DNA of 12,292 nucleotides from UHGV virus genome UHGV-0198005; one strand, 5' to 3'. The notes under the pieces are model-generated. The model saw only the letters and a list, made by a program, of their open reading frames with translations, ran no database searches and was not told where the DNA came from. Positions 4,219-12,292 of the stretch are shown here, piece after piece. The stretch's first letter is position 1; each line of letters begins with the position of its first letter. Source of the stretch: a virus. Both the position numbers and the translations under genes were made by a program.

Positions 4219-5969
4219 AACTGGCACCGAACGTAAAACAGCAGTCACGCGGCATAAAACACAAAGGAACAGAAGTCATTATTTTTGCGGGTAGTGATGC
4301 CTGGGCACACGCGAAACAATGGCAGGAACATGATGCGCGTATGGCCGGAGATAATGAGCCTCCTGTGTGGCTTGGGGAGCAGCAGTTATCAGAACTGGAT
4401 AAGCTGCAAATTGTGCCGGAAGGCAGAAAATCCGTGCGCATATTCAGGGCCGGATATCTTGCGCCAGTAATGATAAAGGCGATTGGTCAGAAGCTGGCGG
4501 CGGCAGGCGTACAGGATGCAAATTTTTACCCTGATGGTATGCACGGTCAGAAGGTGGAGAACTGGCGCGAATATCTGGCCCGTGAGCGCCAGAATCTTTC
4601 TGATGGTCTGGTCATTGAGCTTCCGGTAAAGCAAAAGGCGCAACTTTCGCAGATGGCGGACAGTGAGCGCGCGCAGCTGCTTGCCGATCGCTTTGATGGC
4701 GTTTGCGTACATCCTGAAAGTGAAATCGTTCACGTATGGCGCGGCGGGGTATGGTGTCCGGTCAGCACAATGGAACTTAGCCGCGAAATGGTGGCGATCT
4801 ATTCAGAGCACAGGGCCACTTTCAGCAAGCGCGTAATCAATAACGCCGTGGAAGCGTTAAAAGTTATTGCCGAACCAATGGGCGAGCCGTCCGGCGATTT
4901 GCTGCCGTTCGCCAATGGTGCGCTTGACCTGAAAACGGGGGAATTTTCCCCGCACACGCCGGAGAACTGGATCACCACGCACAACGGCATTGAGTACACG
5001 CCACCAGCACCAGGGGAGAACATCCGCGATAACGCGCCAAACTTTCATAAATGGCTTGAGCACGCAGCCGGAAAAGACCCGCGCAAGATGATGCGTATAT
5101 GTGCCGCGCTGTACATGATTATGGCGAACCGGTACGACTGGCAGATGTTTATTGAGGCCACCGGAGACGGCGGGAGCGGTAAAAGTACATTCACACACAT
5201 AGCCAGCCTTCTGGCAGGGAAACAAAACACGGTAAGCGCTGAAATGACATCGCTTGATGATGCTGGTGGGCGTGCGCAGGTTGTCGGGAGTCGTCTTATC
5301 GTCCTGGCAGACCAGCCGAAATATACAGGCGAAGGAACGGGCATCAAGAAAATCACGGGCGGCGACCCCGTGGAAATTAACCCGAAATATGAAAAGCGTT
5401 TTACGGCGGTAATCAGGGCGGTGGTGCTGGCAACCAATAACAATCCGATGATATTCACCGAACGGGCCGGAGGTGTGGCACGTCGTCGGGTGATATTCCG
5501 GTTCGATAACATCGTAAGCGAGGCAGAAAAAGACAGGGAGCTACCGGAAAAGATCGCGGCTGAAATCCCTGTCATTATCCGCCGCTTGCTGGCGAACTTT
5601 GCCGACCCTGAAAAGGCACGGGCTTTACTCATTGAACAGCGTGACGGTGATGAAGCACTGGCAATAAAGCAACAGACGGATCCGGTTATTGAGTTTTGCC
5701 AGTTCCTGAATTTTCTGGAGGAAGCACGCGGCCTGATGATGGGCGGCGGTGGCGATTCAGTGAAGTACACGACCAGAAACAGCCTTTACCGCGTCTATCT
5801 GGCGTTTATGGCGTACGCAGGCAGGAGCAAACCGCTAAACGTAAATGACTTTGGCAAGGCTATGAAGCCAGCCGCGAAAGTTTACGGACATGAATATATT
5901 ACGCGGAAAGTTAAAGGAGTAACGCAGACTAACGCAATAACAACAGACGATTGCGACGCGTTTTTATAA
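4215..5969 (+). CDS. Replication initiator: primase/helicase with phage-plasmid primase P4-family (D5_N-like) region and P-loop NTPase domain
   Basis: 584-aa ORF. Walker A GDGGSGKST (EATGDGGSGKSTFTHIASLLAG) and a putative Walker B LIVLAD; upstream NGALDLKTGEFSPHTPENWIT resembles the D5_N/primase-C motif. Immediately followed by an iteron array. Confidence 0.85.
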   Translation: MKLAPNVKQQSRGIKHKGTEVIIFAGSDAWAHAKQWQEHDARMAGDNEPPVWLGEQQLSELDKLQIVPEGRKSVRIFRAGYLAPVMIKAIGQKLAAAGVQDANFYPDGMHGQKVENWREYLARERQNLSDGLVIELPVKQKAQLSQMADSERAQLLADRFDGVCVHPESEIVHVWRGGVWCPVSTMELSREMVAIYSEHRATFSKRVINNAVEALKVIAEPMGEPSGDLLPFANGALDLKTGEFSPHTPENWITTHNGIEYTPPAPGENIRDNAPNFHKWLEHAAGKDPRKMMRICAALYMIMANRYDWQMFIEATGDGGSGKSTFTHIASLLAGKQNTVSAEMTSLDDAGGRAQVVGSRLIVLADQPKYTGEGTGIKKITGGDPVEINPKYEKRFTAVIRAVVLATNNNPMIFTERAGGVARRRVIFRFDNIVSEAEKDRELPEKIAAEIPVIIRRLLANFADPEKARALLIEQRDGDEALAIKQQTDPVIEFCQFLNFLEEARGLMMGGGGDSVKYTTRNSLYRVYLAFMAYAGRSKPLNVNDFGKAMKPAAKVYGHEYITRKVKGVTQTNAITTDDCDAFL

Positions 5970-8990: not shown

Positions 8991-9404
8991 ATGGCAACGA
9001 ATGAAAGCATCATGGCGCTACCGCTGGCGAGTAAATTTAAAGCCGAAGCGCGGGCAATGGCTGACAGAGGTTTATCAACCTACGAGGCCGTATATCAACT
9101 CAACAAACTGGAAGAGCAGGACAAGCCGCGCGCTGATGCGATTATGGCGCTTCATGAGCATAAAGACTATCAGCCGCTGTTGCGTGCAATGGCAAACGTG
9201 CCTTGTATCGATGTTGATACGGCTAAAAACATCCTGAACATGACCATAGAGCAGGAACGCCCGAAGGTTGCACCAGAGCTTACCGCAGCCTTTGAAAACT
9301 TTATGGACATGCACAGCCCACAAACCGTATCAGCTGGCATGGCATACGATGGCAGAAACCCAGGCGATGACGGCGACATCGATCGCATACTGAAAACCAT
9401 CTGA
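8991..9404 (+). CDS. Hypothetical protein (137 aa), last gene of the head operon; lambda gpFI-like position and size but no visible similarity
   Basis: ORF with GGGGGA ribosome-binding site, followed by a terminator and the cos site. Functional guess is positional only. Confidence 0.6.
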   Translation: MATNESIMALPLASKFKAEARAMADRGLSTYEAVYQLNKLEEQDKPRADAIMALHEHKDYQPLLRAMANVPCIDVDTAKNILNMTIEQERPKVAPELTAAFENFMDMHSPQTVSAGMAYDGRNPGDDGDIDRILKTI

Positions 9405-9409
9405 GACAA

Positions 9410-9431
9410 GGCCGGAGAAATCCGGCTTTTT
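9410..9431 (+). terminator. Rho-independent terminator (GCCGGA-GAAA-TCCGGC + T6) abutting cosQ
   Basis: Stem-loop plus T-run directly after the 8991-9404 stop. Confidence 0.65.
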
Positions 9432-9432
9432 T

Positions 9433-9609
9433 GCGGGTCCTTCCTGGAATTATGGCCCGTTACGGGGCGGCGACCTCGCGGTTTTTCGCTATTTATGAGC
9501 TTTTTCAGGGGGGTGGTGGTGGTTTTGTTGTTTGCTCTATCTTTATGAATGAAAAGGGAAAGATGCAAACAATACACCAACCTGAAGCAGTAATTAAGTT
9601 GGTGTATTA
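9433..9609 (+). other. Lambda-type cohesive end site cos1 (cosQ-cosN-cosB); cosN 12-nt overhang GGGCGGCGACCT at 9465-9476; cosB diverged from lambda
   Basis: TTACGGGGCGGCGACCTCGCGGTTTTTCGCTATTTATGA matches the recalled lambda cos junction (ACGGGGCGGCGACCTCGCGGGTTTTCGCTATTTATGAAAA) almost base for base, then diverges. Lies directly upstream of the Nu1-like gene as in lambda. Confidence 0.8.
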
Positions 9610-10152
9610 ATGAAATCGCACCTGATGAACAAAAAAAACATGGCGAAAAGCTGCCGTGTAAGTGCGACAGCGTTCGACAAGTGGGGAGTGACTCCCGTTG
9701 AACGTAAAGGCCGTGAGGCGTTTTACGATGTTGCCAGCGTGATAGACAATAGGGTTAACAATGCAATTAGCCAGCTTACAAACGACAAAGGCGATATTGA
9801 TGATGATGAACTCTTACGAGTCAGGATCAGATTACTGACAGCACAGGCGGAGGCGCAGGAACTTAAAAACGAGCGCGATCGCGGTGACGTGATTGATACT
9901 GAGTTTTGCCTGTACGCGCTTTCAAAGCTGGCGAGTCAGATTTCATCAATCATGGACAGCCTCCCGCTTACTATGCAAAGGAGCTTCCCACAGATTACCC
10001 CCGCCATGCTGGATAGGCTTAAAAGGGAAGTGGTTAAAGCCTGTAATGCCAGTGCCAGAGTTGCCGACAACCTCCCACAGATACTGGCTGATTACTTGAA
10101 AGAAACAACCGGAAACGTACCGGAAAAGTTGCTACAGAAGAAAGGCGAGTAA
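9610..10152 (+). CDS. Terminase small subunit homolog, lambda Nu1-like (candidate Rpp-type packaging-redirection protein); true start may be the ATG at 9625
   Basis: LTAQAEAQELKNERDRGDVIDTEFCLYALSKLASQISSIMDSLPLTMQRSFPQ aligns with recalled lambda Nu1 LTRAQADAQELKNARDSAEVVETAFCTFVLSRIAGEIASILDGLPLSVQRRFPE; N-terminus MNKKNMAKS.. parallels Nu1 MEVNKKQLADIF. No large-terminase gene follows. Confidence 0.85.
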   Translation: MKSHLMNKKNMAKSCRVSATAFDKWGVTPVERKGREAFYDVASVIDNRVNNAISQLTNDKGDIDDDELLRVRIRLLTAQAEAQELKNERDRGDVIDTEFCLYALSKLASQISSIMDSLPLTMQRSFPQITPAMLDRLKREVVKACNASARVADNLPQILADYLKETTGNVPEKLLQKKGE

Positions 10153-10159
10153 CAGACGC

Positions 10160-10375
10160 GCAATTATTGAACAAAACTGAGAAACGACATGAAAGCGTCA
10201 TAAATCGCCATTTTAGATGATTACCGTGTCGTTTCTTTTTATTGTGTATCTATTTAAAAACAAATAGTTATGTTCGAGAAGTACCGACATGCTTTTTCCA
10301 GAAAAATTTTCATAAACAGATAAAAACCGCGAGGTCGCCGCCCCGTAACGGGTCCATAATTCCAGGAAGGACCCG
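10160..10375 (-). other. Second lambda-type cos site (cos2) in inverted orientation; cosN at 10332-10343 on the minus strand, with lambda-like cosB elements (R-site-like GAAACGACA / TGTCGTTTC, TTTATGAAAATTTT)
   Basis: Reverse complement of 10322-10375 is CGGGTCCTTCCTGGAATTATGGACCCGTTACGGGGCGGCGACCTCGCGGTTTTT, identical to cos1 apart from one indel. Continuing on the minus strand, TTTATGAAAATTTTTCTGG, CATAACTATTTGTTTTTAAATAGA and AAAGAAACGACAC...TGTCGTTTCTC parallel recalled lambda cosB (R3/I1/R2/R1 region). Confidence 0.7.
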
Positions 10376-10408
10376 ACGACACCAGACAATCAGAACGATG
10401 GGTGCACA

Positions 10409-10582
10409 ATGACAGAAGCCGAAATACTGGGATTAATCCGCCGTGCTGGTGGAATCAGCCAGCAGACTGACGAACAGGCCACGCAGCCGGACAGCGTGAC
10501 AGCCGAAAATTATGCGCGTGTTGTTGCTGAGGTGATGCGCCGTGATGGTATCCAGCTTAATGATGTGGATATGCGTTCTTGA
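10409..10582 (+). CDS. Hypothetical small ORF (57 aa), weakly supported
   Basis: ATG-initiated ORF below the ORF-track size cutoff with only a weak GGTG upstream; acidic, helical composition. May be a remnant. Confidence 0.25.
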   Translation: MTEAEILGLIRRAGGISQQTDEQATQPDSVTAENYARVVAEVMRRDGIQLNDVDMRS

Positions 10583-10664
10583 AATGCTGGCCTACAATCG
10601 CCGCGTGGCACTGTATCGGGAAACGGAGAAAATTACATACCACTGGAAGAAGCCGGAGCGGTTG

Positions 10665-10890
10665 CGGCGGTAACTGGTTGATATTTTCGAAATTCGCCAG
10701 CGGCGAACATCGGGGAAACCAGCCTAACCCGTTGATATTTTCGGGAACCTCAAATTGAGGAGGTCGGAAACATAACCCGTCATATTCTGGATGCTGATAA
10801 TTACCACGCAGCCCATTAAGGCCTAACCCGTTGATTCTTTCGGAAACAGCCATTGGCGTAATCCGGCGCGGTAACTTGCTGAACTTAAAG
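10665..10890. repeat. Degenerate ~50-bp tandem repeat array (about 5 units), each unit starting TAAC(C/T)(C/G)GTTGATATTTTCG-like
   Basis: Unit starts at ~10669 (TAACTGGTTGATATTTTCG), 10724 (TAACCCGTTGATATTTTCG), 10774 (TAACCCGTCATATTCTGG), 10825 (TAACCCGTTGATTCTTTCG), 10871 (TAACTTGCTGAACTTAAAG); spacing 46-55 bp. Confidence 0.5.
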
Positions 10891-11263
10891 CAAAGCGCAA
10901 AATTGCGCTGGCTGGTGGGCATGATGCCGATATGGTGATCCCCATAACGGAAATATCCACCAGCACGGCAACGGCAGAATAGCCACAACACAGAAAAACC
11001 ACGAATATGGGGTTTTTGTTATGGCATGGGCATGATGACCGCCCCTGCTCTGAATGGTGGAAATCACCACGCAGATCATCCACCAGCTTCGTTTTTATAA
11101 ATTAAACATCCGGGAAAATCCGACCCTGAATTGTGCATTTTTTCAGCAAATCATTTTAGTTATACGTTTGGTTATACGGTTTAAAAGTTGAATCATATAC
11201 ATTATTTTAAATCATGAAGTTACACGCTCAATTAAACTACTCTCGTGGACCAAAAATCCCAAG

Positions 11264-11292
11264 AAAACCAACCTATTGCGGTTGGTTTTTTT
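11264..11292. terminator. Intrinsic terminator hairpin (AAAACCAACC-TATTGC-GGTTGGTTTT + T-run), strongest on the plus strand, usable bidirectionally
   Basis: 10-bp perfect stem, 6-nt loop, T7 on the plus strand; located ~70 bp beyond the 3' end of the minus-strand pseudogene. Confidence 0.55.
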
Positions 11293-11360
11293 ATATCTGC
11301 ATTTAATTCGATAAACAGACAGCGACACATCACGGCCTGTTTATTTTCTGTTATCAGAAC

Positions 11361-12292
11361 GTCCAGACTACACCCGCCTGAGTTGTGCTGCTTTCTTCAC
11401 GGGAGAAACGGCTGTCGATACCAAGCGTTAGCCCCGTCAATGTTTGCTCAAAGCCAGCGCCTGCATCAGTGGTCACGTTGTTGCGGCTGTTAATTGCCGA
11501 ACTCCACATCGCCGCCCTTTACGCTACCAAGACGCTCACGCACGGTGTCCAGTTCTGCATCAAATACCAGCGGTTGTGCTGCCGCCATATTCAGCACATC
11601 CGTGGTTGAAGGGGGCATTTGTGCGCGATTCTCTGCGAGACTCCAGCTATGGTTGCCATTATCCAGCAAGGTATATTCATACGTACTGATATCAACAACG
11701 CCTCCGGCATTGCCCAACGTAAATGCCGCATCACCGCGCCCGTTGTTACCAGTGTAAGGTTATCTCCTGCTGCCGGCCTGGCACCGGTGTCCGTCACGAA
11801 TATTTTGAAATCACCTGTTGCTTTAACCTCCAGTAGCCCTCCCTTTTCTATAACGGCAAAGACGGCAATCCCATCTTTTTCAACAATTAAGCGCCCGCCT
11901 TTAATCGTGGGATCATTCGCCGCGCCATAAACCTGTAGCACTCCATTATTGATCGTAGTCTGGTTTACCGCGCCACCCATTTGAACAATTTGATAACCAT
12001 CATTTAATACTGAGTATTCTGCGGTGCCATTTATTTCAATGTACTGATATCCCCCGTTAATTTCAGTATTACTACTTACACCAAATTCTTATATATGCTG
12101 TTCTCCGCCAGGATTGATTTTCGTATTATTGGCGGCCCTACAAACCAGCTGGATATCTTTTTCCAGGACAACACCATCAACTGTCTCACCATACTCAACA
12201 GTTGATGCCAATGCTATGGGCGAATATAACGCTGTAGCCACCAGAACAGATATTGCGGAACGACAAAGAGAAACAGAACCAGATTGGTGCAT
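11361..12292 (-). pseudogene. Decayed autotransporter-type adhesin gene remnant (signal peptide + passenger fragment + linker + last ~44 aa of the beta-barrel), with an in-frame stop and at least two frameshifts; may continue beyond the window edge
   Basis: Minus-strand translation from 12292 gives a signal-peptide-like N-terminus (MHQSGSVSLCRSAISVLVATALYSPIALA), an in-frame TAA at 12089-12091, passenger-like repeats (NNGVLQVYGAANDPTIKGG...), a frame change near 11740-11760 into ...GGVVDISTYEYTLLDNGNHSWSL...TVRERLG..., a stop at 11490, then a third frame ending ...AGVVWTF* (aromatic C-terminus typical of outer-membrane barrels) at ~11361. Confidence 0.45.

Follow-up and report, generated by a model that had tools for sequence, protein, structure and literature searches.

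Two convergent cos sites around an N15-like small terminase gene in an EcCIATCC25922-type phage-inducible chromosomal island

UHGV virus genome UHGV-0198005 (12,292 nucleotides, the whole of which is called the window here) contains two lambda-type cos sites, cos1 and cos2, that lie in opposite orientation around a gene for a Nu1-like small terminase subunit (TerS). The closest described system is the phage-inducible chromosomal island (PICI) EcCICFT073, in which a convergent cos1/cos2 pair around rppA has been published and tested (Fillol-Salom et al. 2018, ISME J, PMC6092414; 2019, Mol Cell, PMC6739421); Murialdo and Feiss 2022 (PMC9026076) also deal with this system. When cloned on a plasmid, each of the EcCICFT073 cos sites leads to transfer by phages lambda and phi80, and in the island itself deletion of cos1 lowers transfer, deletion of cos2 raises it and deletion of both sites abolishes it (PMC6092414). 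RppA (c1503) binds to the helper TerS, and the heterocomplex passes over the phage cos and reads the cosB of cos1. RppA boosts the transfer of cos1 plasmids only, this property moves with a swapped cosB, and interference maps to rppA alone (PMC6739421). Rpp proteins have 139–154 residues and are devoid of the C-terminal part of TerS (PMC6739421, PMC9026076). According to both EcCICFT073 papers, the island has no recognisable phage cosB (PMC6092414, PMC6739421), and the inverted orientation of the cos sites is not discussed in the main texts of these two papers or of Murialdo and Feiss. In the CFT073 chromosome (locus L006) we find the island with one cosN at 25559 (+), rppA at 25660-26094 and the other cosN at 26298 (-); when reverse-complemented, this locus gives at about 26110-26369 the cos2 sequence of the Mol Cell supplement.

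The window represents a cos-type PICI of about 11 kb, belonging to the EcCICFT073 family and to the EcCIATCC25922 type. EcCIATCC25922 (CP009072, 106749-118031, yejM-luxR) is an entry in the 2018 PICI catalogue (Fillol-Salom et al., PMC6092414), and E. coli Nissle 1917, ATCC 25922 and many other strains carry the window DNA, at 98.8% identity, in the interval from tRNA-Pro/yejM to narP. At least 80% of the region 9300-10700, which is the module with cos2, is held by 479 of 5426 complete E. coli genomes. The island is therefore already catalogued, and the two-cos architecture is already published and functionally tested in the sister island EcCICFT073; a study of a TerS-type island (EcCIATCC25922, Nissle) was not found in the searchable literature. 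New with respect to this literature are the full-length TerS variant, similar to that of phage N15, with a matching private cosB; the recognition that cos2 is a true phage cos, which changes from one specificity type to another among the islands and, in the one case checked, matches a prophage of the same genome; and the pattern of cos2 loss. The reading that we favour, and consider somewhat more probable than all others taken together, is a packaging module with a private cos1, recognised by the island TerS together with the large terminase subunit (TerL) of the helper phage, and an optional cos2 for unmodified helper terminase.

The cosN 12-mer GGGCGGCGACCT occurs in exactly two copies in the window, at 9465-9476 (+) and 10332-10343 (-), both within the flanks ACG...CGCGG of a lambda-type cosN. 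Around these copies, arms of 25 nt (9434-9458/10351-10375, 96% identical) and 50 nt (9456-9505/10303-10352, 88%) are offset by one indel and combine into an inverted repeat of about 72 nt (9434-9505 versus 10303-10375) that is about 90% identical and contains both exact cosN sequences. Alignment with lambda, PhiR5_1 and CFT073 prophages over GGGTCCTT... identifies cosQ and I2 at both sites, and the packaging directions of cos1 and cos2 face each other. A search allowing up to one mismatch yielded three cosN matches where 0.07 would be expected, a number not attained in any of 200 shuffles. The third copy, GGGCGGCGACCC at 5357-5368, has one mismatch and lies within the primase gene, with flanks that are partly cos-like; similar one-mismatch matches are found upstream of capsid genes in two of the related loci described below (L042 and L053). 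The 12-mer at 5357-5368 is probably a coding coincidence.

These results bear out most of what a first-pass annotation had read from the same DNA. The cosN1 at 9465-9476 (+) is an exact match, and all other coordinates given earlier are correct; the lambda-like place claimed for cos1 corresponds to 134 bp 5' of the ATG of a Pfam Phage_Nu1 protein; and the near-identical inverted cosQ-cosN segment past the terS stop, with its one indel, is found again in the arms of the inverted repeat. The annotation had also stated that cosB1 departs from lambda after about 35 bp and that cosB2 is closer to lambda than cosB1. When both sites are aligned with lambda cos, cos1 follows it through I2 and then leaves it, with phage similarity extending to some 34-46 nt from the start of cosN, whereas cos2 continues through cosB (153 nt at 73.9%).

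Island terS (9610-10152, +) lies between the two sites, in the place occupied by rpp in EcCICFT073, and encodes a protein of 180 residues that is identified by Pfam, PHROG and BLASTP as a full-length, N15 gp1-like member of the Nu1 family. It scores 83 bits with PF07471 (Phage_Nu1; cut-off 30), matches phrog_57 over residues 1-174 (E 3e-53), and its alignment with Nu1 extends over the full length, including the C-terminal region. The identity is 35% with lambda Nu1 (residues 3-180, E 2e-34, BLASTP) and 41% with PhiR5_1 Nu1; in the latter comparison conservation is much stronger in the C-terminal half than at the N-terminus. The part of TerS proposed to bind TerL is formed by its C-terminal 40 residues (Murialdo and Feiss, PMC9026076). 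The best phage relative in the INPHARED collection is gp1 of N15, with 46% identity over residues 5-166 and one gap of a single residue, and about 55% in the DNA-binding region (residues 5-64); AFDKWGV.PVE..GRE is among the aligned stretches. An identity of the protein as an Rpp could be ruled out, based on its length of 180 residues, its end-to-end alignment with Nu1 and N15 gp1, and the absence of a match to RppA or RppC: in BLASTP the comparison with RppA was negative (E 1.4), and a search of PDB sequences with E up to 10 returned neither RppC nor the lambda Nu1 domain nor any other match. RppA itself matches the terminase-small-subunit PHROG over residues 7-47 only.

As relatives we took the 80 closest IMG/VR loci encoding TerS at 81–100% identity, all of which proved to be islands of the same family. 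Recent capture of TerS from a phage is not supported as an origin, as there is no INPHARED phage above 46% identity and none of these 80 loci is a phage. No TerL gene was found beside terS in the window or in any of the 80 related loci, i.e. the Nu1-TerL gene pair is not present in these islands.

The cos1 site consists of two parts of different character. The phage-shared part (9430-9505, +), delimited by the exact cosN and by alignments, comprises cosQ1 (about 9430-9444), cosN1 (9465-9476) and I2 (9477 to about 9505); it is homologous to the published cos1 of EcCICFT073 and aligns with the cos of lambda, PhiR5_1 and a CFT073 prophage. The second part, cosB1 (9506-9609, +), is island-specific. 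Neither alignment nor BLAST detected similarity of cosB1 to the cosB of lambda, 21 or PhiR12, and R repeats of the lambda, 21 or PhiR12 type were not recognised at cos1. It contains a conserved block TGGTGGTGGTTTTGTTGTT (9514-9532), which holds the N15-R3-like TTGTTGTTT, a second conserved block AATACACCAACCTGAA (9571-9586), and a weaker inverted partner GTTGGTGT (9598-9605). Among the 80 related islands, which all possess cos1, there are 49 distinct cos1 sequences, and both blocks are almost invariant in these. GTTGTTGTTT occupies +51 to +60 in the left end of N15, and its counterpart in the island is TTGTTGTTT at +61 to +69; the element GTTGTTGTT downstream of cosN is common to N15 and the island cosB1. 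A (GGT)4 run is also present in cosB1 of TerS-type islands (window 9512-9523, about +48 to +59), and in the cos1 of EcCICFT073 the run appears as its reverse complement (ACC), from about +54 to +65 (L006 25612-25623), despite there being no detectable similarity between the proteins.

The 12-nt cohesive end of cos1 differs among the islands (GGGCGGCGACCT, GGGCGGAAGGCG, GGGCGTCAGGCG, GGGCGGCAGACG or GGGCGGCTGACG), while cosB1 is unchanged. Variant ends are located about 145 bp 5' of terS in five loci (L050, L053, L071, L081 and L086). The variant GGGCGGAAGGCG was also found in about 69 prophage contexts in IMG/VR, followed by a phage Nu1-type terS (67 lambda-Nu1-like and 2 CFT073-icd-like); among the examples listed, cosB is of the lambda type where terS shares 90–100% identity with lambda Nu1, and the remaining ones have an R3 of the TGTCGGTAC type. 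The sharing of a cohesive-end variant with prophages indicates that the TerL-cut part of cos1 tracks helper phages, and the constancy of cosB1 that the TerS-read part stays linked to the island's own TerS. The variation of the cohesive end fits with a predicted cutting by helper TerL. Another kind of variation concerns cosQ. In the window and in five relatives (L007, L009, L011, L015 and L021) the cosQ of cos1 (9434-9458) is of the cos2 type, CCTTCCTGGAATTATGG, and cos1 of most relatives keeps a PhiR5_1-like or lambda-like cosQ. Comparison of these sequences suggests that gene conversion has occurred between the inverted arms in the lineage of the window, where the inverted repeat is unusually long because cos1 carries the cos2-type cosQ.

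The cos2 site, on the minus strand, has the complete set of elements of a phage cos. The exact cosN and the inverted arms define cosN2 (10332-10343) and cosQ2 (about 10364-10381), which together span 10332-10381 and have the published cos2 of EcCICFT073 as their homologue, and cosB2 with I2 (10160-10331) is supported by the inverted repeat, phage alignments and BLAST. Within the latter, I2 occupies 10303-10331 according to phage alignment, an R3-like element TGTCGGTACTTCTCGAA is found in a lambda-like position at 10273-10289, and R2-like (10227-10245) and R1-like (10171-10189) elements form an inverted pair GAAACGACA/TGTCGTTTC as in lambda; the R1-like element ends 19 bp after the terS stop codon. 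The interval from R2 to R3 is an AT-rich spacer equivalent to I1. Only cos2 of the two sites has these cosB R repeats, i.e. TGTCGGTAC... (R3, +55 to +71), GAAACGACA (R2, +109 to +117) and TGTCGTTTC (R1, +155 to +163), with a spacing similar to that of lambda.

In BLAST comparisons, cos2 is 83.6% identical to PhiR5_1 over 152 nt and 73.9% to lambda over 153 nt, the similarity reaching to about +117, and cosB2 is 90.4% identical to the CFT073 icd prophage over 94 nt. The R3 of the window cos2 is identical to that of the icd prophage, and R2 and R1 resemble those of lambda and PhiR5_1. At least 120 IMG/VR stretches match the R3 17-mer, and of the 119 aligning with cos2, 114 are outside an island context. 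Among the matches listed, most of these non-island stretches are followed at a short distance by a phage Nu1-type terS with the orientation of the cos. None of the phages in the collections searched has the exact cos of the window cos2, and the prophages with the R3 17-mer differ in R2/R1. The phage-like DNA at cos2 is about 220 bp long, from cosQ to just past R1; a phage DNA search of the region gave no match beyond the cos segment, and none in the open reading frame (ORF) 3' of cos2.

Different versions of cos2 exist in related islands, and every version found matches a real phage cos that lies just upstream of a phage terS. In each of them the phage-like DNA ends at about the position where the phage Nu1 start codon would be, abutting the stop codon of the island gene. 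The cos2 of EcCICFT073 is 93.3% identical to the PhiR12_1 cos over 179 nt, and its R elements (CCATGTCCGGTTTCTC, GAACCGGACATGC, AACCGGACAT) are common to the CFT073 potB prophage (87% over 153 nt), which sits only a few kb from EcCICFT073. A second group of islands has an inverted cos2 with the cosN GGGCGGGAGCAT, 88% identical to the phi458 cos and 86% to the mEp460 cos. Since the TerS of phi458 is unrelated to Nu1, a cos2 of this type would open a class of helpers that is unlikely to be hijacked by a Nu1-type island protein. One further island has a cos2 of the SerU-LTIIb/Gifsy-1 type, 75% identical to SerU-LTIIb, with R elements CAGATCCTTTC. In the lambda-type cos2 class, cosQ2, cosN2 and I2 are nearly invariant, and the R elements vary at core positions. 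Judged from these alignments, the published statement that there is no phage cosB in the island holds for cos1 but not for cos2; the recent, PV-series accessions of the matching phages may be the reason why the comparison was lacking earlier.

The status of cos2 could be scored in 75 of the 80 related loci. A complete inverted cos2 is present in 41 of these (30 have a lambda-type cosN, 10 belong to the phi458 type and 1 to the SerU type), a stump of cosQ2 and half of cosN2 within a 73-bp spacer in 10, and no cos2 but an 11-bp spacer instead in 22; the remaining two are rearranged. Some islands without cos2 (L028 and L030) encode a TerS identical to that of the window over 174 residues. Hence cos2 is dispensable and optional, and cos1 is always kept. 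A set of TerS-type islands without cos2 (L050-L062, on IMG/VR contigs of 14-60 kb) has a second gpE-like capsid gene fragment about 1.6 kb downstream, a layout that equals the helper-embedded PICI configuration of PMC10111431.

The right boundary of the island is attR (TTTTAGTTATACGTTTGGTTATACGG, 11153-11180, strand not assigned), identified by a 16-bp direct repeat shared with attL upstream of int in Nissle and in agreement with the att given for EcCIATCC25922 in Table S1 of PMC6092414. From these limits and the catalogue entry it follows that both cos sites are internal to the catalogued PICI. The window begins with the ATG of a tyrosine integrase gene, followed by genes for a D5-type primase, a single-stranded DNA-binding protein (SSB), a gpE-like major capsid protein and a gpD-like decoration protein, and further downstream by a 137-aa ORF, cos1, the Nu1-like gene, cos2 and a small ORF. 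As in EcCICFT073-type PICIs, int is at the left end, the regulator, primase and capsid homologue follow in one direction, att repeats flank the island, and convergent cos1 and cos2 surround a packaging-specificity gene. The small ORF 3' of cos2 is a conserved island ORF (phrog_1561; 10409-10665, +; 93 aa in relatives), recognised by alignment with Nissle and EcCICFT073 and by its PHROG match, which has been shortened in the window from 93 to 57 aa (10409-10582) by a 17-bp deletion at 10575/10576 relative to Nissle 1917 and EcCICFT073. As this ORF is found in related islands with or without cos2, cos2 is embedded in island DNA.

We propose the following course of packaging. Because cos1 shares cosQ, cosN and I2 with lambdoid helpers, helper TerL would be able to cut it. 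The island TerS would bind to cosB1 via its N15-type winged-helix domain, as suggested by sequence similarity, and may recruit helper TerL by its conserved C-terminal half, either alone or in mixed oligomers with the helper TerS. Packaging would thereby be diverted from phage to island, proceeding rightwards through terS, and the phage would be starved. By analogy with EcCICFT073, cos2 would be used by unmodified helper terminase with a TerS that matches its R sites, in this case packaging leftwards; the site is exchanged among phage specificity types and often lost. An earlier suggestion in the first-pass annotation, that cos2 is recognised by helper TerS alone and cos1 by a complex of island TerS and helper TerS, agrees with this in its division of labour, which fits the EcCICFT073 experiments as well as the island-specific cosB1 and phage-type cosB2. 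The TerS/TerS complex at cos1 is only one option, however, as the window protein is a full-length TerS and not an Rpp, and the island TerS is no less likely to bind helper TerL directly.

Packaging of lambda DNA is polar, and its termination depends on orientation, requiring cosQ upstream of cosN. With such polarity, a run started from either site is expected to ignore the other site and to end at the next copy of its own, at least one unit further on. The inverted orientation would probably make the two sites tolerable in this way, keeping the genome whole; in direct orientation, terS would be lost from runs that begin at cos2 and finish at cos1. If both sites were cut within one unit, the resulting ends would be unable to anneal, which may explain a cost of cos2 with non-cognate helpers and its frequent loss. 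A more specific version of the proposal, which we put forward with distinctly more doubt than the module as such, is a two-key system in which cos1 with the N15-type TerS would be a private lock and cos2 a swappable public cassette obtained from the phages met, perhaps including phages with a non-Nu1 TerS (phi458/mEp460); the inverted placement would then have been selected because direct placement yields genomes without the specificity gene. If this were true, the island could be packaged by helpers beyond the reach of its own protein.

Several considerations weigh against an optional, useful cos2 and the module as proposed. A strong general benefit of cos2 is not likely, since it is missing or truncated in 32 of the 75 islands scored, and it can even be a cost, as its deletion from EcCICFT073 raised transfer with lambda and phi80. 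No phage cos identical to the window cos2 was found in the collections searched, and its R3 is of the 21 type while its R2/R1 are lambda/PhiR5_1-like; the match of cos2 to a co-resident prophage was checked in one genome, that of CFT073. The orientation argument relies on the textbook polarity of lambda, and the functions assigned to TerS and the cos sites of the window island are presumed from sequence and from the sister island.

Some of these observations would also suit the explanation that cos2 is a functionless, neutral or mildly harmful relic of island-lambdoid phage recombination that is decaying, with only cos1 of importance. The increased transfer of EcCICFT073 upon cos2 deletion is in line with this, and so are the stumps (10/75) and complete absences (22/75) among TerS-type islands, some of which have a TerS identical to that of the window. 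On the other hand, cos2 is complete where present, with every sub-site from cosQ to R1, and the occurrence of at least four phage-type versions at the same position and orientation indicates repeated replacement and not simple decay. Moreover, the cloned cos2 of EcCICFT073 is functional, the single deletion of its cos1 leaves some transfer, and the window-type module with cos2 is present in 479 of 5426 complete E. coli genomes. We regard a mere relic as unlikely, although it keeps an appreciable probability. An interference device seems improbable: cos2 would here be a high-copy decoy that titrates helper terminase, or would provoke unproductive cuts, and thereby lower helper yield. The helper-type R sites in cos2, including those of a prophage in the same genome, and the replication of PICIs on induction known from general PICI biology are compatible with such a role, and by their geometry cuts at both inverted cosN sites would produce fragments with non-annealing ends, which could explain the transfer cost of cos2. 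However, interference by EcCICFT073 was mapped to rppA alone, and a decoy needs neither cosQ nor an exact orientation, both of which are always kept.

Two other explanations can be given very little credit. The inverted cos arms could form the ends of an invertible cassette that swaps the pairing of cosB and flanks or switches terS on and off, for which the 72-nt inverted repeats of about 90% identity and the signs of gene conversion between the arms might be cited; it was rejected, with only a slight residual probability, since terS or rpp has the same orientation relative to the capsid genes and the downstream ORF in all 80 loci and in EcCICFT073. Least credible is the notion in the first-pass annotation that cos2 is a scar, in which case 10160-10600, the site with its surroundings, would be left over from an unrelated lambdoid prophage that became joined to the island. 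The cosB2 segment does resemble a phage cos, but the phage-like DNA is confined to these ~220 bp, between terS and the phrog_1561 ORF, with island genes on both sides and attR only at 11153-11180, which contradicts this notion; furthermore, EcCICFT073 has the same layout at a different chromosomal site, with the att repeats outside. We retain the module of a private cos1 and an optional, exchangeable cos2 as the preferred interpretation.

Other features of the window complete the description of the island. Directly 5' of cosQ1, after the 137-aa ORF, is a terminator-like hairpin (GGCCGGAGAAATCCGGC followed by a T-run; 9410-9432, +), recognised by sequence and folding; its stem is 9 bp long, and folding of 9400-9445 gives a minimum free energy of -17.5 kcal/mol. 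It is kept in EcCICFT073, and it is not listed by a consensus terminator scan. Given its position directly 5' of cosQ1, expression of terS may need read-through or a promoter of its own. The 137-aa ORF itself (8991-9404), just 5' of cos1, matches the C-terminal part of a head maturation protease PHROG (E 2.7e-9), a match that corresponds to the gpC/Nu3-like region; the island therefore has homologues of lambda E, D and possibly the scaffold. No relatives of this ORF were found in a scan of a collection holding one genome per species. The gpE-like, gpD-like and Nu3/gpC-C-terminus-like ORFs are the only capsid-related set in the window (Pfam, PHROG), and the island does not have the portal, protease, TerL and head-tail connector of its own that characterise a capsid-forming PICI (cf-PICI): a portal or large terminase was not detected among the 10 window ORFs scanned against Pfam, nor is either listed for the Nissle island, which is near-identical, in its annotation. 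In EcCICFT073, deleting the capsid homologue gave no phenotype (PMC6092414). The stretch from the small ORF to attR contains a direct repeat of about 27 nt (GCCTAACCCGTTGATATTTTCGGGAAC) in three to four copies (10668-10847), as does EcCICFT073, and these copies may be arm-type sites for an integrase or excisionase. The DNA past attR belongs to the host and not to the island; on its minus strand, 11245-12292 carries what is left of an autotransporter gene, which the Nissle 1917 annotation gives as a truncated pseudogene with a frameshift.

Pathogenic and probiotic E. coli commonly carry PICIs of the EcCICFT073 family, Nissle 1917 and ATCC 25922 being examples with the window module, and the sole packaging mechanism worked out for the family is the hijacking of helper TerS by Rpp. 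The combination of an N15-like TerS and a private cosB suggests a second route, the replacement of TerS in a cos system, which would bring with it a different helper range and different rules of interference. An exchangeable phage cos2 also offers a concrete reason for the puzzling second site. These properties are of relevance for engineering of such islands, or of Nissle, as delivery vehicles.

Among known systems, the likeness to EcCICFT073 is the most extensive, as the two islands have in common int, alpA-like, Icd-like, D5-type primase, SSB, gpE-like and gpD-like genes, the 137-aa ORF, and then in the same order cos1, specificity gene, inverted cos2, 93-aa ORF and att, with homology on both flanks of the module; in both, cos1 resembles that of phages in cosQ, cosN and I2, but not in cosB. 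They differ in that EcCICFT073 has an Rpp (144–153 aa, only the TerS winged-helix) where the window has a full-length TerS of 180 aa, that the distance from cosN to the start codon is about 90 bp in EcCICFT073 and 134 bp, with an N15-like R3 in cosB1, in the window, and that the R sites of cos2 are of the PhiR12 type in the former and lambda/21-like in the latter. N15 provides the closest phage relative of the island TerS, gp1, and shares the GTTGTTGTT element, but in the island this element is about 9-10 bp farther from cosN, and the island cosN is of the lambda type and not of the N15 type. In addition, N15 has a single cos with a cosB reduced to R3, and the island terS has no adjoining TerL gene. 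Lambda is resembled by cos2, with complete cosQ, cosN, I2, R3, I1, R2 and R1 at lambda-like distances, and by the location of cos1 upstream of a Nu1 homologue; in contrast, cos2 is followed by the antisense 3' end of island terS and not by a Nu1 start, the identity is 74%, and lambda has one cos per genome. Parallels also exist with the Staphylococcus aureus pathogenicity islands (SaPIs). In pac SaPIs a satellite TerS redirects the helper TerL, as may by analogy happen with the window island; SaPIbov5 is a cos SaPI, and two putative cos sites in a satellite are described in the literature for SaPIbov4. The work on lateral transduction in PMC12829572 deals with staphylococci and does not cover cos PICIs. 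The SaPIs are Gram-positive elements unrelated in sequence, and those that bear a TerS package by pac, whereas the window island combines cos with a satellite TerS.

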